Under the pieces are notes generated by a model. The model ran no database searches. It had not been told where the DNA came from and was given only the letters and a program-made list of their open reading frames with translations. Both the position numbers and the translations under genes were made by a program. Source: Catajapyx aquilonaris (lineage: Eukaryota). Taken from it: DNA of 20,000 nt. Below are positions 1-17,979 of this stretch, piece by piece (positions within the stretch are counted from its first letter, which is position 1; each line of letters begins with the position of its first letter). The stretch spans positions 57,679 through 77,678 of the forward strand of contig KZ538365.1 in NCBI GenBank assembly GCA_000934665.2, written 5' to 3'.

Positions 1-1
1 C

Positions 2-2089
2 ATGAAAGACTTGCGTCTGCAAGCCAAAGCCGTTGAACAAGTAAACCAAGAGGGAGGGCAAAAGCTGCAAGCTACTCAAGAAAAATGGGAAGAATTTACG
101 GAAGGCCTACAAACCGTCAGTCAGCTGATCCAAGAAGTTCAGCTGCAGCTCAAGCAAGTTATCGAGTCAGAGCAACCGATGGAGAGCAAAGTGGAAGAAC
201 TGGACTTAATTGAAATTGCCAACAAGAGCCACACCACCAAGCTCATCTATTTAATCGCCACTGGGAATCATTTGCTGCGAGATCTTCCCAACTACGACAT
301 GCCTCCCATGATATTCGAATTGTATGACACTGTTCGGCACATTGAGAAAACCGTGACATGGGAGCGAGAACGGCTCTTGCAACTCATGTCACTGACCGAG
401 GAATATGAGCAGACTCTAGAAGAATTTGCGCAAATCATCGAGGTAGCAGACGCCCTGGTGGAGAGCCCCATCATTGCCTTGCATCTGAATCACCTTCAGG
501 AAGAACTGCAAAAGCACCGCAGGTTCTTTGCCAATCTCAGCCACTGCCAACAAGTTTTGGAATCTCTGGAGGCCAACCTGGATCCAGCCACTCGTGCCTC
601 CCATCACGAGATGCACTCGAGATTGCATCATCAAGCTTCAGTAATCCTGGACAAGGCCGCCCAAAGAGCACAGCAGATGGCCATGGCTGCCTCGAGATGG
701 ACGGTGCTGGAGAGAGGAATGCAAGAAGAGAGTGGTTGGCTTCAACTTACACAGCAAAGAGTGCCGGGCCTGGAGTCAGTATCTTGTGCCGATTACGAGC
801 AATGCTTTGCATTATTCCAGAGCCTGTATTCGGACGTGGTGGTCCACCAAGCGCGTCTGACTCAGCTCAGGAGCATTGCTGAAAATCTTCAAGGCATCCT
901 GACATGTTCGGGCCTAGAGACAAAGTATGACTACCTTGCCGAGACTATTCACAGGCTGCAAGAGGTGGTGACTGCAGGTCTGCAGAGACTAGTCGCCTTC
1001 AGAGAAGCTTGGAATAACTACGAACAACTGACCGACCGCCTGCAGGGCTGGCTGGAAAAATCAGAGAAGAAGCTTGATGCCATCCTGGCGCACAAACTTT
1101 CTGGTCGAAATTTGAAAGAATTTTGGGAGTTAAAAGCACAGTTAGAAGTGCAGCAAGCTGTCAGGAACGAGATTATCGTGTGCTTTGAACAGGCTCTAAG
1201 AGCGTTGCCCATCATTGATGAACCGGCTCAAAGACAGTTTTACAGTCAGCTGGACGACCGATGGACCTCCCTGTCCGCGAGAGTGATGGCAGTTGACGCT
1301 ACCTTGCAGCAGGACGACACAGCTGACGAGATTAACGTCGAGGAAACTCTCCACACCGTGGGTAAGGAGTTGGACGAGATTCAAGAGGTGGTCGAGAGCC
1401 TTACCGTCGTCATCGAGACGGAAGACGACTTGTACGAGTATCTGGAGAAGTTGCAGGTACTCAAAGCCCAAATAGTCAACAAGCTAAACCATTTGAACGT
1501 TCTCAAGAGTCGCAGATTGACAACAAAAGAAGCAGAGACCTTGGGTGGATTGCTCCACACCATCCACACCTTGGATTATCAAATCACCGAAGAACTGGAA
1601 GCAGCTCAGGTTATCCGGGATAAGTTTACCAGTTTTAACAAGATGGCTATCAAAGTCAAACGACTCCAGGACAACCTGAAAGCCAAGGTGGACCAGTGGA
1701 CTACGTTCGTTGAGCTGTCTCACGATATACTCCAGCAGACCATCAAGAACTGCGACGGCATCGACGAAGAAGTTGAAACACAAAGGCACGATCTCCGAAG
1801 ACTCTCGGGAGTGTTGGTTGGCTTTCCTTCAACGGAGCACTTGTCCATCAGCACTGCCAAATTGGAGAGCGAAGTAGCCGAATTAGAAGCCAACCTTCAG
1901 ACGCTGACCACCCGGGTCAAGGAGCTGCAGAAGAAAGTTCAGGAGCACCTCGGCTTGTGGCAGCAGTACGAACACACCCTAGAGTTGCTAAACCAGTGCG
2001 TCCACGAAACTCAGTACGTCATGGACATCCTGGACGTCAATGGAGTTGTCGACTACGATCGAGTTCAAGCGGCCACCGAGAAGCTAGAG
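2..2089 (+). CDS. Msp300: Nesprin/Msp300-like gene, exon A (5'-truncated large spectrin-repeat exon, 696 codons in window)
   Basis: Long helical E/Q/L-rich ORF with spectrin-repeat Trp spacing (AWNNYEQLTDRLQGWL, LDDRWTSL, LWQQYE). Phase-0 donor GAG|GTATGT at 2090. Open from the window start. Confidence 0.9.
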
Positions 2090-3795
2090 GTATGTATTGG
2101 ATTCATTTCTTGCGTTTTTGTGGGCGTGGCTAATTCATATCAGACCAAATTGGATTTTTATCGTCATATCTACCCCCATGCTAATTGAGGATAGTGTCGC
2201 AGGTTTTAAGTAAGATCCATCCGATTACTGGTTACCGACAAGGATGCCAAATTCTTGCGAACAATATTTCTTAGCTGCATGTTTTTCCTGACTGATCTTG
2301 TGTGCTGTTTTGTTATTGTAACTCGAAGGAATGTCTGACTCTCTGATTTGCTATAGGTCGCGACTCACGAGTTATTCCAATTCAGATCACGCCATCTAAT
2401 ATTGGTTGCACTGGTTTGGTTACAAGCCAAGGACCAGGGTGTAAAAATAGGATGACGACATAGCACACTGGGAATAATATATGCCTGTATTTCTTTCCAT
2501 CGGATGCAGAGGTGACGTATAAGCGCCGAGATGCGTGCTGAAATATCTGGTTCAAAATAGTGGTCCTAGCTGCTTCAGACTGACCCGATGGTGGGGTAAG
2601 AACTATCTGCATAGTGCATCTTTATGGATGTCAATGCGCTCTGTAAATAGGTTAGTGAATCAGGACGGGGAGATTATGCCTTGCGGTAAGATGTAAGAGG
2701 GCATCTTGTGATAACTCCGAACTTGGCCTCTGCCCCCACCCCTTTCTGTATCGGAAAATGCGGAAATAAGTGATACACTGAGATATACAAAGCTCCAGTG
2801 TTGGTAATATGTATACCGCCAGTGTCAGGAGCGCCTAGGACCACGTGACTAATCCGAACCGGAGATAAAATAAGGAAAAGTTCCGTTCTCGGGAATTTTG
2901 TCGCCTATTTTCTGGAAGAGAGCCAAGGTGATGACGAAGACATGCCATGACTTTTTTTTTTAAACGCTGGTGGCATTTAGGATTTACGACCGTGTTTATG
3001 TCATTCACGTGTATTACCAGTGCGTGATGTCATACCTTTCGCGCCCAGGGTGCGTGAATATTTGTGGCGGAAGATGTGAGTGGAATGGACGAATTCCTTG
3101 AGCTGCATAACTGCGTGCCGTGATATTTACACGAGTCGTTGGCCCTTCGTGCAGAAAACTATTGAATGAATGACCGTGACGTATTTGGGGTATAGCGAAA
3201 AAGTCACGGCTTTGGCTGCCGGGATGCCAAGGACGGTGAAGAGTTGTGTGGGTCGTTAAAGAGACGTGTTGATTACATGCTTGCTGCTGTGATTGAAAAG
3301 GTCATTCCCCAATTATAACTGATCCCGAGCTTTCGTGTGCCGGCCGACATGGAGAGTAGAGTCTGACGGGATGCTCCGAAGGAATTTTTGAGAGAAAGTT
3401 TTGTAGGGCAAAAGTCAGCGAAACACAGCAGATTGTTTGTGCATATTTCGGTTCCAAGTTAGTCACTAGACTGCTATTGTTAGTTCAGCAACGTTCCATA
3501 CAATCTTATCGATTCGTAGAAAAACCACTTGGAAGGCCAGTCCGTCTCATCCACTCCAGATAATGAATCTATCCCACTGATGTTTCTAGTGTCTACAGTA
3601 ATTAGTTTCGCAGTCCTCGACACTGCATTATCAGCTAGAGTAATTGCTTCCAAATGGGTCGGGCAGCCCCCCGCGTTGTACCGGCCTTATTGGATCCTGT
3701 TCTGGCGCGTGCCAGGGGCCAATTAACACCGCCAGCCCATTTGATCGGCCAAGAGACACGTGGAAGCTGCCTCTGATAACGATTGTTTCCAATAG

Positions 3796-4089
3796 GAACT
3801 TGGTGGCAAGTTGAAGGAGCGTGAACGACTAGTGGACGAGCTTCGCAACTCGGCGTCCACCTTGACTGCCCAGTGTGCTCCCGAGGTACGTGAGGAAGTG
3901 GAGGCTGCCGTTGGATCAGCTGCTCGGGCTTGGCATGCCACGTGCGATACTCTCAACTCCTTGCGGGACAAGTACCGGAAGGCTCTGGGACTTTGGGACA
4001 CCTTCAGAGACGACTGCCAGGGTGTTCGGGCTTGGACTGAGGAGAAGATTGAGGCCGTTGCTCACATGTCATGCCCTGGAGATATCAAG
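3796..4089 (+). CDS. Msp300: Nesprin/Msp300-like exon B (ELGGKLKERERL...PGDIK)
   Basis: Acceptor tttccaatAG ending 3795; donor AAG|GTAGGA at 4090; phase 0/0; spectrin pattern AWHATCDTL...LWDTFRDDCQGVRAW. Confidence 0.88.
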
Positions 4090-7010
4090 GTAGGATAAGT
4101 TTGGATTGCTCTTTCCGTGGCTTCTTAGGGTTGATTAGACAGTCTGACCTGCGATGCACTCGTGTGCCATTTGAAAATAATGTTGCTCAAGTGGTTGCAT
4201 CAGCATTCGGCAAAATTTCATGCAGCATACGGATGGTTCACCGGAGAAAAAAAAACTTGAAATTAGGCAAAATTCGTAAGAGATTGCGCACTTCCTGCTT
4301 TACTGAAATGTCAAGTTCATTTCCCTGGATTATGACTGCGCTGATAAGACAAGTTGCACAAAAGAAGACCGACTCATACCTTCACACCCATAGAGGAATC
4401 ACCCTAGACTGACTTTCGTCTTGCATGTTGTTCATCCAGGCCCTGTAGTGTACGCAGGGCACTTTTTATTACACTTTCAATTCTGCCGTAGCTATACAGT
4501 TACTAGAGAATGCGGAATTTACGATCTTTGTCTTTTGCCATTCGTTTTGTTACGGCAAAGCACCAACCAACGCGCGATAAGGCAGTGTTTGCAACATAGG
4601 TCGTAGATTTCAAGGTGAAGACCGTATCAGCTTCTTGCATCGTTAGGTTGGAAGGGGGAAAAAATTAAGCCCCCAAGAAATGTGTAAGAAATTTCCGGAC
4701 GTAAAAGAAGTACACAAGGGCGGAGTCTAGGCGGGAATTACATCAACACCATTAGTGTAGCGTTGCCCCCGGCGAAATCATATGAACGAGGCTGAATTGT
4801 TCTTATAAGCCGAACAAGTCCACTTACTAATAAGCTGAAAACTTCAAAAATGGAGTTAGTATCGAGTGATATATACTTGTTTGTAAGCATGATATAGATG
4901 ACTTGAGAAACTACAACTAATAGGTTATAAAGAGGAAAGGTCGCACGCAACTGTCGACTACGATCGGAATATTGGCATATCAGAGAACTGACCCCCCTTA
5001 CCCACAGGTCCTTCTGTGTATAAATTTAAATATTAACGGTGTAGGGGGAATATAGAAGGCGACCTTCGACAGAGGTTAGGTCATCGAGCAAGTCAAGAAG
5101 GAACTGCGACTCGAGACCGAGTTGTTCCGCACTAAATATAGAGGTGATGTCGGTAGCTGCATGTTTTGCCTCCTTCACCTGTTTGCATAATGTTGGTTGC
5201 AGCCGCAGGACAAGGAGGTGTCTGTGACTACCGGAGTACTTTGCAACGTTTTTTTTTTTTTTCACGATGACTTTCAAATCGGTAAACCGCATATTTAAAG
5301 AGCGGGGGTAACCTGCTGATTACCTGGGCGCAGGCGCAGGCAGGTACTGTACAGTACATTACCGGCAAGTTGCGTAACACGTGTATTCCCATCTGGGCTG
5401 CGGCAGGAAACGAGCTATAGAATTGTGCGGAGCATATCTGCAGTTGCCAGCTGTACTGCCTCGATAGAGGATCCCTTACTTGGATATGCGAACTGTGTCT
5501 GAATGGATGTAGTGCAAAGTGTTCGTTTCAATATGGGTGCTGTGTATCGGGACACTCAGGAAAAACGGCAGAAATCGGTGAGACTTTTTTTCAAAGGCAT
5601 GTTTTGTAACTGCTGCGTGAAGTGAATATTTAAGCGTGTGTACTGGTGTCGCAATCTCAAAGTGGCGTAAGTTGTGTGGTAGGCGTATAAGGGAAAAAAT
5701 AGTCGTGACGATAACGCTCAACGTTGATACGCGCGCAAATTGTATTTGCTATTAAATTAACCTTAGAGATAGCGTCACCCGTCCGAGTGAACAACATGAT
5801 GTCATGTTTGTTGACAAATAGTGATGTCCTACTCAATGCCGGTATTTAGCCAGTAAAAGTGACGGGTGCTGGGAGTGCATGACCGGAACTTGACATCACA
5901 CTGGTGACTTTTCGGGAACCTTGAGTAATAAGTTATGGCCAAGACGTGACGCGATACAGGTGAAAGGCATGCTTCCGAGACGGTGCTACGGAGGTGAATA
6001 TAATCGAAATGCCAAAAATAGTTCAAGGCGATTAGGTCGAGGAGAACTGCAAGAAATGAGGATATGTCTGTCCCATCCCACTTTCATTCATTCGTTCATT
6101 GATTCATTCAGCCGTGATCTGACAGAATATGATTTCTCACATGCGCGCTACGTGTCACTGTACCATTGCATGCTGGTACCTTGACGCAGCGGGAACCTGA
6201 TAGTATATGTGAATAGGAATAGGCAGGCATGTGTCGACGAATTTATGAGTCAACTCGCAAGCCATTGCATATAGTACTGCACCTGTGGTTCCTTTCGAAG
6301 CTGAGATTTCTAATGGCCATGTTCTGAATACAGGAACGTGACTTTGCTGTGTGACTCAGCAAAAAATTACGGCAATCATTTCAAGCCATGAGTATAGCTT
6401 ACTAATCTGTAAAATTACGCATCGGAACTGTAATGATGGCACAGCCTCATTGCACATAGCTCCTGTGTACAACGTAGTGAGCTAGGAAGACAAAAATTAT
6501 ACTCAGACTACGATTGCTATCTGGCCATGCGTTTCCGTTTAATATATTGCACTTTTCTAGACCTGAGTTTTGTCTAGTTTTCGTAAGCTGTGCTGCTAAC
6601 TGCTGTAGTTTTCTAGATCAGCGTGCTTGCAAATTAAAAAATAGCCCTATATACCCATGTCATAGTGAGAGCAGTATAGGCTACAAATAAGGAATTCTAC
6701 TGTCTACATAATTATCTAGGCGGTTGAAATGCGTGGTTTCTTATGGGGTTCCCCATACCAGTAGTAGAATAATAAAAAGATTATTGCTATACTTATTTCC
6801 ACTGCAGTAATTCGAGATTTTCGGAACGTAGCCAACGAGGCTTTCTTGTGTACCGTATGCCATTACATTTGAATAAGCTGATTAACGAGCTTCTGTTCAG
6901 CTGTGGTGACGCTTAAGCTATAGCCCTCCATTTATACGATCCCGTCGTCAGGTGTACTTGTAATCACAAATATGCCTTTATGAACGTGAACATAATGACG
7001 ACTAATTGTA

Positions 7011-7117
7011 ATCACGTGTGCACGTGATAGAGGCGTTAATTTTTTAGATCAATGCGGTTGTGACCCACCATTTACCTCTGGTCACGCGCGTCTTGTATTG
7101 TAAAGCAAGCCGGAAAT
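7011..7117 (+). promoter_or_regulatory. Putative internal promoter motifs: two CACGTG E-boxes (7013-7018, 7021-7026) and an ETS-like CCGGAAAT (7110-7117)
   Basis: Motifs read directly in CpG-rich DNA 50-150 bp upstream of the candidate alternative ATG. Function is inferred. Confidence 0.3.
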
Positions 7118-7163
7118 GTTTAATATTTAGATTAATCCCCAGTCCCCTTTTTTAAAGAAAAAA

Positions 7164-7235
7164 ATGCTTTTGGGAGCAGGAGAATTGAAATTGTCAGTAA
7201 ACGATGGAACTTATTCAGGAGTCACTCTTTGGCCG
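7164..7235 (+). CDS. Candidate alternative first coding exon (MLLGAGELKLSVNDGTYSGVTLWP); may extend 5' to an acceptor at 7142
   Basis: AAAATG start context, 24 open codons, consensus donor CCG|GTAAGT at 7236 in phase 0, compatible with exon C at 8415. The upstream ccccAG (7141-7142) would give an in-frame 93-nt exon. Confidence 0.55.
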
Positions 7236-8414
7236 GTAAGTGCATTATCAAGTTATTGTAAAACTTAATGTGTTTAAATACCGCAAAGTCGTATTATGAA
7301 CTACCAATACACTATAAAATGAGCCTGTCAATGTCTGTCGTGCCTGCTTTTCTGCGAAATACCCGAATGATATAGGTATAGGTATATTCGAGGACCCAAT
7401 CATTGCAACACTAGATTTATGCAGGGATTACTTCAGAGACCAAGTAATAGCCAGGCAAATTTTGCAGCCATATTTTGAGGACTCGGATAAAAATTATTTA
7501 ACACATACGATAAAAGGTTATAATTAGATCCACTTCAGAGTACAAAATCGATTCATATGACTTGTAACGTGCAATATTCATGTCTTCTCCAATGAAATGA
7601 TAATCAATACAAGTGACTTAATTGGTTAAACCACACTTGTAAAACGAGGAAAAAGTTTCTTTATATGGTTACTATATACAGATTTCATACACAAAAAAAT
7701 CATATTTTCCCCGCGTGACCTCGGAGTAAACCCGGAAAACACGGGGTTTTCCGGGCTATTACAACACTGCGCATTTTCTTATCGCTGCTTACCCTGCGCT
7801 GGGTGATGTTCCCAAATAATACAAAGACGACGAGGCGACGACGCGACGCCCGTCTGAACACCACTTTATGTGAATTCAAGCTGTGTCAGACACAGGACGA
7901 TACCTCATTTTAAAATTTATATACTGCATTATGCTGGGAATCATATGGCAGTAGGGCTAAAATTACGCCACATGATGACCCATAATGAAATGATAATTTT
8001 GTTCCCAGTCCTGGTGGAGGGCTGGAGCAGAAAGCAGGAAGTCGGTAAATTCGACCGATAAAAATTGTCGCAGGAAGTGGCCGGATGAACCCAGCCCAGA
8101 AAGGAAGTATTATTCACGTTGCTTTGAGTTTCGCGGCACCTACTTTTGGTCTCATGGTCCCATGCATTAGTGAGCTGAGTCAATTGTCTCTGAAAGATGC
8201 ATCATCCTTGTGACATCAGGCGGACTGGTTGTCACCTATTATTAGTTCCTCCAGTGCACCCTATTATTCTCTATGTTCTCTTGGTGTTAATCGTCTTGCT
8301 GTGGATAAGCAAGTGGTGGCCGATTCTTTGCGACATGAAGGTCGTGAACCTGGAATGATGGTTTTCTTGATGGGAGGTAATAGTATAATTATTGAACAAT
8401 GTCCTTTTTTTCAG

Positions 8415-8672
8415 GCTGTAGAATCGGGGCTTCTGGAGCAGGAAGGACGGGTTGAACGGCTGGAATCGGTGGCTATCCAGTTGGGCCAGGAGCTGGAGAT
8501 GGGTGAAGAAGCTGTGACGGTCCTGACAGCAGAAACTGATGCTCTCAGGAGACGTTTAGCTGTACTGAAGGACAGTTTGGGCTCGTTGTCAAAGTTGGCT
8601 GGGGAAGAGACAGCAGCTCGATGCAATGGGACTCTCAAGGACACAACGAGTTATCTCCAGAATGTCCAGGAG
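8415..8672 (+). CDS. Msp300: Nesprin/Msp300-like exon C (AVESGLLEQ...LQNVQE)
   Basis: Acceptor tttttttcAG ending 8414; donor GAG|GTGTGT at 8673; phase 0/0. Confidence 0.88.
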
Positions 8673-8987
8673 GTGTGTTAAGATGGCTTGATGATTCCAC
8701 ACTTATATAATAAATTATGCCAAAATATGTACAGAAAAGGTGGGGTGTGTGGGGGAAGGGGGGTGCAGTGCAGGAGGTGCTCACAACTTGTGAGCAATGA
8801 GTTTATTTAATTATTGGAGTGAAGGCACTGTTTGGTTTGATCCAGGCATGAATTCTGGCTCTGTTAGTGCAGAAGCATTGATTGTCATAGCCACTATACC
8901 TTCACGTTGCCCGTATAGGCCACATAAGGCATGACAGAGGATAGAAGTGGATAATAAATATGTAAAATGTAAATGTTTGTATTCCAG

Positions 8988-9173
8988 TCACTGCAAAGCA
9001 GAGAGAAGCCAGTGAATGGGGATGAAGAAACTGAGTTAGGTGCCCTGAGAGACCAACTGCTGGCACTAGGCAAAGCTGAGAACCAAATCCAGGCTGTCAA
9101 AGAACATGGGTCATCAACTTTGGGGCCTCCTTACGCTCCTGTAACCACGTCTGTTGTGTTGCAAGCACTACAG
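8988..9173 (+). CDS. Msp300: Nesprin/Msp300-like exon D (SLQSREKP...VLQALQ)
   Basis: Acceptor tattccAG ending 8987; donor CAG|GTTTGT at 9174; phase 0/0. Confidence 0.85.
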
Positions 9174-9731
9174 GTTTGTTTTTTAAAATGTTCAAAGCCA
9201 AATAATAATGTATCAGCATGATGGGAACAAATAATGAATAGGCCACAGCCAATTCCTTCCTTTCCTACCCTTGTCCCGTCCATGAGGAGGTGCTGTGTCG
9301 GTGAGGAGTTTCTGACCTGCACCTAGGGGGTTGTCTTGTAGCTTGGCCCCCTGGGGGACTGCACACAACCCCCAATTTGAGACATCGCACTTGCACCTGT
9401 ATCCCCCCCCCCCCCCTCACAANAAATCTCTATCCTGACCCCTGCACTGGAGAGAAAAATAATTAGAAAATTTTGTAAGAAGAAAATGGTGGTAATCCAC
9501 CCCCCCTGAAAGGGCTCTGCTACCTCAATGAGGTAAAGCTAAACTAAACTAAACATGATGGGAACAAATGTGTCTGCTTCTATAGTAAAATTTGATTTTG
9601 CAAACTATTTTAACTCTTTGACACTACAAATAAAGTGCATAAATGGGAGGCATATAACCTCAGCTTTATAATCTCCATAAAAACTATGTGTCTCGAGATG
9701 AATGAAATTGATATACAGTGGAGCATCGATT

Positions 9732-9993
9732 GACTGATGTTGGATGATTGGTGGCGTATGAATCGATGATGGATGACTTGAGGGATGGCTTATGACTGGA
9801 TGACTTGATGGTTGACTGGTGGCTTGTGACTGGATGACTTGATGGTTGACTGGTGGCTTATGACTGGATGACTTGATGATGGATGATTGGTGGCAGCGTC
9901 GTCGTTTTATTTTGTATTATGATTGTTGGTGTTGGGAGTGAGTGGGCTGTTGGTCCTTAACGGGCATGGCCGGTCCTAATAAAATCCTATTAA
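9732..9993 (+). mobile_element. 262-bp insertion inside the MITE left TIR, probably a 5'-truncated non-LTR retroelement 3' end
   Basis: Flanked by a 15-bp direct repeat, AGTGGAGCATCGATT (9717-9731) / AGTGGAGCAGCGATT (9994-10008). AATAAA at 9978-9983 near its 3' end. Confidence 0.55.
9786..9878 (+). repeat. 34-bp minisatellite, about 2.7 copies (TGGCTTRTGACTGGATGACTTGATGGTTGACTGG)
   Basis: Units start at 9786, 9820 and 9854, with degenerate copies on both flanks. Confidence 0.9.
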
Positions 9994-10236
9994 AGTGGAG
10001 CAGCGATTATCCGAACACCGATCAACCGAACCTTCGGTTAACCGAACGTTTTCGGGTCGGCAAAAAAAAACAAAAAACGAAAAAAACACACCATGTGATT
10101 CCCCTAGTGGTCGCTACAGCTGTGGCGCTGCAGATTAGCCGCCAAAAAAACGAGCCTCGGCTCTCAAGCAAAAGAGTTGGCCTTCCCCCCCCCCCCTAAA
10201 CTGTAGGACTACTTCATGTAAGGACAGTAAGGTATA

Positions 10237-10301
10237 TGTACTATATACGCCAAATTGTTTCATACCCCGGGGGTATGAAACAATTTGGCGTATATAGTAC
10301 A
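10237..10301. repeat. Perfect 65-bp palindrome (32-bp arms, 1-nt spacer)
   Basis: TGTACTATATACGCCAAATTGTTTCATACCCC-G-GGGGTATGAAACAATTTGGCGTATATAGTACA. Confidence 0.95.
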
Positions 10302-11101
10302 GTATTTTTAAGACGTGCCTGTGACAGAAAATATACAGGTTTGTGATTAATATCACTGTTTCTTAGTTTCATATTACTCCTGTGACACCGGTACAATTTT
10401 TTTCCGTAAATGATTGGTTATCCGAACAATCAGTTATCCGAACACCCCCTTGGCAGACTCTGTTTGGATAATCGATGCTCCACTGTAATTGCAAAGTAAA
10501 ACTAGCACATGTTTCAGCACAACTTACATATTGTTCACACATTGTAGATGGCCTTGCTAAAGCCAAACTCAATATTGTACTTCTACAATATCAGAGTTCA
10601 CTTAATTCCCATTGTAAACTCATTTTGCACAGAATTATGTGAAGTGCTTTTCACTGTATAAGGAGTTAATTCACGTGGGGTCTGGGTGATCCAGATATCC
10701 CACAGATGTTTTAGGGAGGCCTATCCCCACCAACTGTCCATGGAAAGCGTATTTTACTTTGGAGCTAATATTTTGTGCAACAAAATTGCTTTGCTTTATA
10801 GACTGAGTCAGAAGACAACCCAACCTATCCCACATGAGACATGACACACTTGGATGACAGCTATCCATCCTGGTGGTTTAATTTATGACCCTGGCACCTT
10901 ATGGAGGCCATGTAACACCTGGTTTAACCTAACTTCTTCATGGCGATCTCTTTAACTTGAATAAGATCTTGCCAATCAATCTAGGAAAGCCCACTACTGA
11001 TGATACTCCTCCATATACGAGCTCGTAGCTTTAATTTCATCACTAGTACTAACAATTCATTCAAGCCCTGCATTGTGTAAAAAATTATTTTCCTGTTTCA
11101 G

Positions 11102-11929
11102 TTGTGGCAGCAGGTTTTCCAGGAGACTTTTAGCCAGTATCAGCGTCTGTCCCGCCTTCTAGTATGTCGCCATGACACCAATTCCCTTCTGGGTATGTGG
11201 GAGTCCTACTTGAACCATGTCAAGCAGTTTCTCTCTGCTGCTCTTCCTGGGTCATATGATGCCCTGAGTGAGGAGCAACGCCTTTGCGAGATCCACAGGA
11301 ACCTGGTCAGCTGCCAGCAGAATGTGATTCAGACTAGGCAGGATGAGCTGCAGTCTTCTGAGCTGCCTGAGGTTTCTGTTGGCGAGGCTGCAAGCTTGTC
11401 AGCTTTACAGGAGCTTCATTCAGACACTTTGAGCCAACTTGGTTGCCGCCACTCACAGATAGGTGAGAGGCTGGAGAAATGGGATCGGTATAAGCGGGAC
11501 CAAGACAAGCTCTTGGCATGGCTGAGGGAACTGGAGAGGGAGAAGCAGAAGCTGGAACTTCCATACTTGAGAATAAGAAGAGCCCCCAAGGTCCTTCACC
11601 GGATACAGGTTTTGCATGACAAGATACCAGTTGGAGAGTCATTAGTGTCTGGATTGCTGCACCAGCAGGCCACACTCTTACTTTACTGCAATGAAAGTGT
11701 GGCGTCTTCTATGCGAATGGAGGCAGGTGCACTGAGGCAGAGAGTGGCAAACCTGAGAGCTGGCCTGGAAACTTGGCGGGACTTTATGATGCGAGTGCAA
11801 GACCTGTATAAATCATATGAAGAGCGAAGAGGGAGAATACAGACAACTTTGCACACAGTGCAAGCTTGCTTGGCTGGCGAGGTTCCAACTAAACTTGAAC
11901 ACTGTCAGAGGAGATTGGATGATCTGAAG
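11102..11929 (+). CDS. Msp300: Nesprin/Msp300-like exon E (LWQQVFQETF...RLDDLK)
   Basis: Acceptor tgtttcAG ending 11101; donor AAG|GTAAGA at 11930; spectrin repeats (KWDRYKRDQDKLLAWL). Confidence 0.92.
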
Positions 11930-12342
11930 GTAAGAAAACTCCTAACCAAGCAGTACAAAATGAAAACCACGGAATATTCTTGATAAACTGTAATAAGCAT
12001 TCATGTAAACAAATTATTGCTTTTAATGCTCGGTGCTCCACTCCTATACTTTTTAAAAAAATCAAAAGACTTGACTGTATGTTCTGTAACATTTCAAGTG
12101 GCTGAGAAAAGGCACTGTGAATAATTGCCAGGTTATTTGCTTAGGTCTTTTTCAAGCATTCACTTCCATTTTGTTGCATACTTCTTTGCCTTCAACTATT
12201 TATATTAACATGTACAAAAAGTAAGGGCCATTTTGGTGCATGTATATCATTATATTTATTATACCCTATGATCAGTGTTGTCTTCCTTACTTTAGCATCT
12301 TTGTAAAACTGCCTTAGTTAATAAATTGATTCTCATTTGTAG

Positions 12343-12996
12343 AAGCACCGCAGTTCTTTACTGGAACTAACAAAAGACCTAGACAATCTGGGTACAACTC
12401 AAGAACAGTTGAAGCAACGACTAAGCCCCTCAGATCTGAAGGTTATCAACCAGCATGTGTGGCTACTATGGCAACAACATGCAGAACTCCAGCATCAGCT
12501 TTGCAGTCACACCTACCAGTTGGAGGAAAGGATGGGCTTGCTCAGGATGTTTGACTCCAGGTGTTCACGATTTATAACCTGGGCTGTAGAGATGGAAGGG
12601 AGGCTTGAGTCTGGTGGACAACGACACGGAGGGATGGAGGAGATGATACGCCAGCTTGACTCAGAACTCAAAGAAGAGATGGAGCTGCGACAAGGAGATG
12701 TCACTTGGCTGATGGAATCTGGGCGAGAGCTGCAGGAGATGGCCTCAGAAGAGGAGATGGTAGAGTCCATTGGGCAGAAGATGAACAAGGTCAAGGAGAA
12801 ATGGGAGGCACTGCAGGCTGTTAGGGGGAGAAGAGTGAGCAGGCTACAAGAAGTACTTCAAGCATTGGCAGAGCTGGAAGCCAGAATGGCTGAGCTCCGG
12901 GCTCTCCTGCTTAGCCTGGAGGCACAACTGAATGTTCCATTACAGTTCCAGGAATGCACGCGGGCTGACATTGATGCAAAGCTTAAGGCACATGAG
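12343..12996 (+). CDS. Msp300: Nesprin/Msp300-like exon F (KHRSSLLEL...KLKAHE)
   Basis: Acceptor catttgtAG ending 12342; donor GAG|GTTAGT at 12997; phase 0/0. Confidence 0.92.
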
Positions 12997-13136
12997 GTTA
13001 GTTATTCCAAAATGAAAGTACAAATAATAATAATGCTTGTCTTGTAATTAGGTTTTCAGCAGTGAAGAATTTTATGCAGAGTTGCTTTAACACTGTATAT
13101 TTGATTTATGGATGGTTCTTTTTTTTTGTACTTCAG

Positions 13137-13282
13137 GACATGCAGAAAATGATTGAGAAGCAGAGCAGTGCAATGGCTGATGTCCTCAACCTTGGAGAAG
13201 TACTTTTGAGTGACTGTGAATCATGCAATGCATCCATTGACACAGAGGCCGTACAGCTTGCAATGGATTTGCTGGAAAAGAG
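13137..13282 (+). CDS. Msp300: Nesprin/Msp300-like exon G (DMQKMIEKQ...LLEK/R)
   Basis: Acceptor tacttcAG ending 13136; phase-2 donor AG|GTCAGT at 13283; VLNLGEVLLSDCESC resembles the conserved nesprin VLNLCEVLLHDCDAC motif. Confidence 0.9.
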
Positions 13283-13348
13283 GTCAGTTGCGTCGCCTAA
13301 ATGTTTTCAATATGCAAAGAACAATTACGGTATTGTTTTTCTTGATAG

Positions 13349-13547
13349 GTGGAAGAACATTTGCACACTGTCAGCTGATCGGAAAAAGTGCATCCTTAGC
13401 ACTTGGAAGAGCTGGAAGAAAATTTTGTCTGAATGTGACAAGTTGGAAGTCTTTCTTGCTGAGCAAGAAAAGGCTGCAGCAGATATCAATACAGATGCCA
13501 GTGTAGTGAAACTAGAGGCATTTGAGGAGCAGGTTGCTGCTGCTAAG
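13349..13547 (+). CDS. Msp300: Nesprin/Msp300-like exon H (R/WKNICTLS...AAAK)
   Basis: Acceptor ttcttgatAG ending 13348 (phase 2); donor AAG|GTCAGT at 13548. Splicing restores LEKRWKNIC, similar to nesprin LDRRWRNIC. Confidence 0.9.
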
Positions 13548-13638
13548 GTCAGTGTGGACAACAATAATAATACATTGTGTTCCATGTACAGCATTTGGAT
13601 CCTTTTAGTGATTGAAACTTTCTCCCAAAGTTGTTATA

Positions 13639-14012
13639 TAGGGTAACAGGAAACTCGCACCCAATCGCCAGGTAGACTGATAGTACTCGCAAAACTAATA
13701 CAGGGATGTGCAATTAGTTTTTGGCTCCGTTGCGTACTTAATGCATATGACACCTTTAAAGTGTAGAGGGCTGGATGGTAGAATATGAGGCAAAAACGAC
13801 GAAGTGCACGGGTGTCGCACCAGGATTCTTCCTCTGATGGGATTTGATCACCTATTGCACATGGACGATGCATTAGGGGACCAAGGTTGGATTATTTGGA
13901 GGCCTCCAGCTGACCTGCTTCTCTGAAGAAGAACTAATTGCACATCCCTATATTAGTTTTACAAGTACTATCAGTCTATCTGGCGATTGTCCCTGAGTTT
14001 CCCTTCACCCTG
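13639..14012. mobile_element. Tc1/mariner-type MITE, about 374 bp, with ~80-bp imperfect TIRs
   Basis: TA|TAGGGT...CAATCGCCAGGTAGACTGATAGTACTCGCAAAACTAATACAGGGATGTGCAATTAGTT (to 13719) is inverted at 13932-14012, ending CACCCTG|TA. Confidence 0.85.
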
Positions 14013-14078
14013 TACGTATTTGTATATTATGTTTTGTCCCCCAATGGAGATGCCCAATTATTCCCAGATGCTAGTATA

Positions 14079-17380: not shown

Positions 17381-17979
17381 CCTCCTGAGACCCGAGAAGA
17401 AATGAGTAACACAATGTCAGTTCCTATTGCATTTTCTGAACATTTTCCCAATAAGAAACGAGAAAAAATTATATTTTTCAGCTTTCATCCGTTCTGCTTT
17501 TAAAAGCAGAACGGATGAAATCTGAAAATTTAAATGCCACTTAATGGATCACTAACATAGTGCTCTATCCTCCAAAGAATGTTTTTTAAATTCATTTGTG
17601 GAATTCATGGTAGCAATTCGTCTCATAAGGCAATTAAAGATAAACTGCAATTATTTTTGAATGCCACCACTCCAGGCATGGGGCTTGCTCCTTCCCTTCT
17701 TACCCCCTAGCATGGTATACCTTGCTATTCTAGATTTTAAAATTGAACTGTAGTACCAAGCACACTTCCTTGTGGGTGTTCAGGCATAAGATGAGCGCCT
17801 AGCTTCAGCAGCGGCATCCGCCATTTTCATGAGTGATTTCATTTTCGCGGCCAAAGTCAGATATTTGACACTAGGTGGCTACACCTATTCAGGCCAGATT
17901 GTAATCATGGGATGCCAACAGATTACAGTTCTGTTGGCATCACTAGTTGGCGCCAATTTTTTTTGCTGGTCTCGGGAGG
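17381..17979. mobile_element. Non-autonomous piggyBac-like element with ATAT target-site duplication
   Basis: ATAT|CCTCCTGAGACC ... GGTCTCGGGAGG|ATAT (11/12 TIR match); internal 27-bp-arm palindrome at 17475-17528 and a 12-bp stem at 17911-17941. Confidence 0.7.

Follow-up and report, generated by a model that had tools for sequence, protein, structure and literature searches.

The nesprin gene of the window

The window, that is the whole stretch of 20,000 nucleotides of Catajapyx aquilonaris DNA that was analysed, is the final 20 kb of contig C654 and carries the 3' part of an arthropod Msp300/nesprin gene (Table 1). A nesprin locus had been proposed in a preliminary description made from the letters, and this identity is borne out by spectrin repeats and by exons collinear with those of insect Msp300, exon E being 44-46% identical to the insect proteins. 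Two giant exons lie upstream, one with its own stop and the other, exon A, ending at 2089. The former is 7 kb long (38,175-45,245 of C654, or -19,503 to -12,433 of the window) and has a phase-0 donor about 90 nt before its stop, which is like a KASH-less terminal form with the option of reading on. Both the donor of exon B (4089) and the acceptor of exon C (8415) are in phase 0, and the reading frame is open from exon B to the last exon (3796 to about 19581), over about 1,448 codons. A KASH exon was found at the start of contig C6054 (PF10541, E 1.8e-22; 53-68% identity to seven insect C-termini). Because of this homology, and because its acceptor is in phase 2 and matches the last donor of the window, we infer that this exon belongs to the gene on C654.

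Intron 1, 4090-7150 and 7680-8414 are single-copy DNA, and a search of 2000-11200 against Rfam gave no matches. Further dispersed repeats lie in introns at 9260-10490, 13631-14014 and 17786-17956; the part at about 10000-10490 is CpG-rich, has inverted ends and stands out against CpG-poor DNA.

Table 1. Features of the window discussed in the text (positions in window coordinates)
Feature	Position	Strand	Remarks
Exon A	2..2089	+	3' end of 7.4-kb giant exon; donor GAG/GT, phase 0
ATG/GT donor	2588..2591	+	score 6.8; only one in intron 1; would place Met directly on exon B
Out-of-frame donor	2596	+	score 8.6, stronger; 5 nt downstream of the 2588-2591 donor
Exon B	3796..4089	+	98 codons; joined to exon C in the 6,284-nt spliced contig
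MSCPGDIK	4066..4089	+	only in-frame ATG of exon B; resembles short-form starts in ant and beetle models
Twin CACGTG E-box	7013..7026	.	in single-copy DNA; the repeat begins 67 bp to the right; putative function
MITE-like dispersed repeat	7093..7769	.	677 bp; imperfect terminal inverted repeats; contains the whole candidate exon
Left terminal repeat	7093..7117	+	includes CCGGAAAT (7110-7117)
AG acceptor candidate	7141..7142	+	putative start of a stop-free cassette of 93 nt, which the spliced contig omits
Candidate ATG-led stretch	7164..7235	+	24 codons; read as repeat-derived pseudo-exon
Donor GTAAGT	7236..7241	+	strong consensus; private to this repeat copy; score 10.9
Right terminal repeat	7746..7769	-	imperfect reverse complement of the left
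CpG change point	8090..8710	.	o/e falls from about 0.9-1.0 to about 0.3
Exon C	8415..8672	+	contig unbroken at its acceptor

A candidate start exon inside an old repeat

The preliminary description placed in intron 2 an alternative start exon, with its own promoter, for a short nesprin isoform. Its letters are all present: ATG 7164 follows a run of A and opens 24 codons (MLLGAGELKLSVNDGTYSGVTLWP) which end at CCG/GTAAGT (7233-7241), in phase 0 with exon C. When scored with a generic donor matrix, donor 7236 (10.9) is the best in intron 2 and exceeds all 14 modelled or verified donors (5.5-10.7). An ATG-led in-phase exon at this donor level, a threshold that we set ourselves, arose in 4.5% of 2,000 Markov-simulated introns, and in 1.3% of the same 2,000 if at least 24 codons were demanded; at a donor score of at least 6 the proportion was 91%. 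The minus strand of the 77.7-kb contig contains no such exon at a donor score of at least 10.8, 14 with a score of at least 8 and at least 10 codons (0.78 per 4.3 kb), and five with that score and at least 24 codons (0.28 per 4.3 kb). Exons of this ATG-donor class are common, and 7164-7235 stands at their upper end.

Of the features cited for the candidate, ATG 7164, all 24 codons, the AG at 7141, donor 7236 and the supposed ETS motif are inside the repeat of Table 1, and only the twin E-box lies outside it, in unique DNA. The CACGTG motifs at 7013 and 7021 and CCGGAAAT at 7110-7117 do exist where they had been reported; the latter, however, is repeat terminus and not a separate ETS site. It was also read in three of five other genomic matches to the terminal pattern, one of these five matching along the whole body of the element. 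Its two ends, at 7093-7117 and 7746-7769, form an imperfect inverted repeat, which makes the 677-bp element MITE-like: it is dispersed in short copies that have no coding capacity (the longest ORF inside it has 69 codons) and, as MITEs are, it is AT-rich. No target-site duplication was found, the flanks of this copy sharing only 3 bases, in a family of old copies. Of 1,895 random pairs of intron segments, 0.9% aligned with a score as high as that of the two termini. Inverted termini are present, imperfectly, both in this copy and in the family profile, and an intact pair was not recovered in the other copies. The repeat starts with TAGTG, which we take to be reminiscent of hAT elements.

A genome search with 7100-7760 yielded at least 40 other matches, mostly 65-76% identical, with 40 of the 45 genome candidates scored. 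These other copies cover 7147-7768 and nothing further left. A profile made from 20 copies, leaving out the one under study, matches 7090-7793 (E 1e-98); the alignments comprise 20 of the 25 distinct non-self loci, the remaining five being those whose match starts at 7345 or later. The copy in intron 2 is old, with 58-80% identity to the family consensus depending on the segment. At the position of the donor the family is T-rich, none of the 20 other copies scores above 4.2 in the homologous stretch, and donor 7236 is four changes in nine away from the repeat consensus. Either drift or selection could account for such a private donor. An old MITE-like element would have inserted into intron 2, where point mutations of this one copy would have turned a T-rich stretch downstream of an ATG with its A-run into a perfect donor.

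The element may also have been exonised. Under this explanation, which we hold to be very unlikely, the twin E-box would act as promoter and ATG 7164 together with the new donor would give exon C a 24-aa N-terminus (about 1,455 aa, KASH included), possibly in place of an ancestral first exon that insects keep in intron 2. The strength of the donor within the intron, its restriction to this copy and the lack of equivalents on the minus strand agree with it, as does the twin E-box in unique DNA, which appeared in 0.2% of intron simulations, although CACGTG occurs three times in the 1.7 kb of intron 1 and is thus denser there than in intron 2, which has three in 4.3 kb. It is opposed by the origin of the supposed ETS motif in the terminal repeat, by ATGs upstream at 7052 and 7116, by the fact that an intron of this size is expected to hold about one ATG-donor pair of ordinary strength, and by a divergence of the segment from the consensus (0.58) that falls within the range of other copies (0.37-0.88). 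A donor GTAAGC at 6583, put forward for a non-coding first exon, is weak and was rejected for its low score (2.6).

The 24-aa peptide had no match: compared with 32 N-termini and 239 proteins it did no better than shuffles, and in a protein homology search with the 45-codon frame 7131-7265 as query none of 12 candidates reached E<=10, which is weak evidence. The suggested conservation in orthologues thus found no homologue in its favour, though with identities of only about 46% to the nearest relatives found, an exon of recent origin would escape such a comparison. From the repeat origin, the peptide without a match and the spliced contig described below, 7164-7235 is most likely a transposon-derived pseudo-exon, and we are fairly confident that it is not a main exon of the gene; a role as start exon or as cassette joined to 8415 is not supported.

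The transcript assembly

RNA was available from one run (X1, share 0.24; run type unrecorded) as assembly contigs only, which were aligned over 1-13600. The assembly is spliced: a 6,284-nt contig removes six GT..AG introns, five of them further downstream, and joins 4089 directly to 8415, running unbroken through exon C. The main transcript, judging by this one assembly, would therefore splice exon B to exon C across the repeat. The stop-free stretch of 93 nt behind the AG at 7141-7142 exists, as had been stated, but as a cassette it is omitted from this contig, and the expected junction 7235->8415 is absent from the X1 assembly, 4089->8415 being the sole joint, although an assembly may lose minor forms. 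If a main 5' exon were spliced to 8415, a contig break would be expected there, and its absence argues against exonisation of the repeat; a minor 5' exon may have been lost to tip clipping. Assemblers clip short tips, and minor 5' ends fall under this rule. Because assemblies drop such tips, minor or tissue-specific use of donor 7236 would be invisible in X1. Logan assemblies are described as simplified in a SPAdes-like manner with a 150-bp rule (10.1101/2024.07.30.605881). Directly before the acceptor of exon C, 8214-8414 forms 67 stop-free codons in frame with it, including three Mets; as an extension of exon C this stretch was rejected, since the 4089->8415 joint skips it.

The 6,284-nt contig starts at 3795, one base (G) before exon B, which suggests a second upstream partner of this exon. 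In a 31-mer graph the start at 3795 would fit a merge with an exon ending in CG, GG or TG, because exon A and the intron both end in AG and only the final G would be shared. Of the modelled exons upstream, the four closest have A or AG at their 3' ends, which is at odds with one shared G. Depth is 6.8 on exon A and 51.8 from exon B onward, one figure per contig, and was not used as evidence. The region 2271-3632, which includes 2588, has no assembly contig, and no joint of exon A to exon B was seen; short records were dropped or filtered, so these gaps are uninformative. The contig of exon A ends at 2024, which fits a merge at the phase-0 CAG 1994-1996 (a cryptic acceptor) or low cover.

It is also conceivable that there is no short isoform, the break at exon B being due to long transcripts that skip the giant exon or to an assembly effect and the short insect models being mostly annotation splits. 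Skipping a giant exon needs no new promoter, and fly Msp300 uses its giant exons alternatively (PMC8616381). The endings of the four nearest upstream exons speak against it, and we consider it unlikely.

Short Msp300 models of insects

Proteins of 404-2,592 aa were collected by a profile search, its query having been seeded by models of this kind. Among the resulting 119 proteins there are 11 named insect models of 1,362-1,555 aa, 8 with KASH on record; all are gene models, and annotation splits at giant exons could inflate this count. Nesprin-1-like and Msp300-like models of 1,360-1,560 aa (P0003, P0134, P0135, P0138, P0139, P0140 and P0165, with P0009 partial) are collinear with the gene described here from exon B or C to KASH, and exon E is 45-46% identical where measured. 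We inspected 22 N-termini, all of which extend upstream of exon E by 125 residues or more. In 15-16 of them there are internal Mets or intron-like extensions, which would agree with annotation splits, and one model runs back into exon A.

Three models (P0134, P0009 and P0140) place a novel start of 8-10 aa on exon C. The start peptides on exon C are MCTPEEIK in the ant Pseudomyrmex and MCTPDELK and MCSCTQDEIK in the beetles Oryctes and Agrilus, with the common pattern MC(T)xxE(I/L)K, which Gryllus follows loosely. They do not resemble what other ants and beetles have at the end of exon B. Annotation error is hard to credit for a near-identical novel peptide in ant and beetle, and splits fail to explain it. 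Met stands directly on exon B in two of the 22 N-termini (Diachasmimorpha and Ranatra), at a place occupied by E, K or D in five long forms. Neither type of start resembles the 24-aa peptide of 7164-7235.

Ant and beetle models place their first coding exon, joined to exon C, in exactly this intron, so a promoter in intron 2 is possible, and this is a point in favour of an exonised repeat. A scan of 459 stop-free GT/GC sites in introns 1 and 2 found no MC..K-like exon led by ATG, so that intron 2 offers no other candidate of this type; the best MC..K-like site, SCSALNIE (5120-5143), was rejected because it has no ATG in frame. Against the three insect start peptides the end of the candidate exon scores -14, which opposes exonisation. 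The boldest version, replacement of an ancestral start exon of intron 2 by an exonised MITE (7164-7235), we regard as highly improbable.

Proposed entry at exon B

Most of the support for a short isoform points to entry at exon B and not at 7164. If there is an internal first exon, the likeliest place for it to end is the ATG/GT donor of intron 1, a putative splice site. It fits both the pattern of Met on exon B and the single shared G; four other donors of intron 1 fit this G too. The minus strand has three ATG/GT sites in 77.7 kb (0.07 per 1.7 kb). The tandem donors at 2588-2601 follow one and the same ATG, one of them giving an in-frame Met on exon B; the stronger one, which would compete with it, would give an 8-codon ORF. 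The partner of exon B is compatible, equally, with five intron-1 donors or with exons beyond the aligned stretch.

In this reading the internal promoter lies within intron 1 or upstream of it and would drive a short first exon ending at 2588-2591, which would be spliced to 3796 and give Met, exon B and the following exons up to KASH, about 1,530 aa. In a variant, translation would begin at ATG 4066 (about 1,440 aa). The product would be a spectrin rod at the outer nuclear membrane. KASH binds SUN proteins and CH domains bind actin, so such a product would be attached to SUN and would be without the CH link to actin. That the locus makes a short KASH isoform without CH domains, about 1,440-1,530 aa long and entering at exon B, we put at somewhat better than even.

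Hybrid first-internal exons have been described in mammals, and exon B may be one, with transcription starting within it and translation at ATG 4066, so that its 3' end would be the counterpart of the MC..K exon. MSCPGDIK has the same length to the junction as the ant peptide and shares M, P, I and K with it. Its score against the three insect start peptides, 14.3, was reached by 12 of 17,454 control 8-mers, and the exon-B ends of other insects score 1.7-3.3; this is, however, a match of eight residues to a profile of three peptides, picked post hoc. Putative promoter motifs occur within exon B (an E-box at 3939, ETS-like motifs at 3893 and 3975), and transcripts starting there would leave the contig unbroken. 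ATG 4066 is in a weak context, with out-of-frame ATGs nearby at 3935 and 4071, and the contig start at 3795 would stay unexplained. We regard a hybrid exon B as distinctly unlikely.

An ATG-led stretch further upstream (about 46,355-46,462 of C654, or about -11,324 to -11,217) has 36 codons and a phase-0 donor GGG/GTGAGT with a score of 9.8. It directly precedes a coding exon, also fits the single G before exon B and could match internal start sites of fly Msp300.

The CpG step

The candidate exon had been said to lie in CpG-rich DNA, but this property is not local: CpG o/e is 0.95 at 6300-7092, 0.98 in the 5' part of intron 2 and 0.93 in intron 1. The drop was placed at 8,650 (interval 8,090-8,710) and is seen in synonymous sites too, where observed and expected CpGs are 56/68 in exon A, 6/11 in B, 0/5 in C, 3/15 in E and 1/12 in F. 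A CpG-neutral block of 28 kb (about 38,200-66,100 of C654, or about -19,500 to 8,400) extends over both giant exons, and the rest of the gene is CpG-depleted (o/e 0.2-0.35). Gene-body methylation in crayfish targets long, CpG-poor housekeeping genes (PMC6172769). Broad or germ-line activity of the short unit would have brought gene-body methylation and, with it, loss of CpG from exon C onward; the step is the trace that we infer for a broadly active internal promoter upstream. It lies 5.5-6 kb downstream of 2588 and only about 1 kb downstream of 7235, and this distance suits an intron-2 promoter, and with it an exonised repeat, better than an intron-1 promoter; it cannot place the promoter. 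The intermediate CpG loss of exon B agrees with a start inside that exon. The step may simply mark the end of an unmethylated giant-exon block, and a neutral block that tracks the two giant exons over 28 kb is what would be seen if there were no short isoform.

The preliminary idea of a short isoform from an internal promoter gains independent, if indirect, support in its general form: the insect models, the contig start at 3795 and the CpG step speak for a CH-less KASH form, whose entry would more probably be at exon B than at 7164.

Comparison with known nesprins

Drosophila Msp300 is transcribed from four start sites, and internal ones at exons 18 and 21 yield G and M, isoforms that bear KASH and lack the CH domains (PMC8616381; PMC11230431). 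According to these texts, all fly transcripts except isoform F measure 21-43 kb (PMC8616381) and isoform G has 1.5 MDa (PMC11230431). The form proposed here is like G and M in being a CH-less KASH form from an internal promoter of the same gene; unlike them it would start downstream of the giant exons, with about 6.3 kb and 1,440-1,530 aa. A KASH form of 6.3 kb is absent from the 11 fly isoforms as given in that text. Nesprin-1 alpha of vertebrate SYNE1 is likewise N-terminally truncated, CH-less and KASH-bearing; it uses an alternative start exon and is tied to myonuclear anchoring in mice (PMC8616381). The proposed form shares the truncation, the lack of CH domains and KASH with it, and the two are likely of independent origin.

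The principle of internal-start CH-less KASH forms is known, and a short arthropod form would be new: no published short Msp300 isoform of a non-fly arthropod was found in the literature searched, most subscription journals being outside it. That non-fly arthropods keep a short Msp300 of about 160-170 kDa with its own start and broad expression, which left the methylation step here, is a tentative proposal that we rate somewhat short of even. If such an isoform is real and conserved, the arthropod equivalent of nesprin-1 alpha would have escaped fly genetics. In that case many of the insect models named 'nesprin-1-like' would be true transcription units instead of annotation splits, and an internal promoter could be recognised by a CpG step in the sequence. 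As a repeat-derived look-alike exon, 7164-7235 itself would be of little import.

A second, divergent KASH domain was detected elsewhere in the genome (C5171:29121-29273, 28.5 bits), which we take to be probably that of the other arthropod KASH gene, klarsicht.
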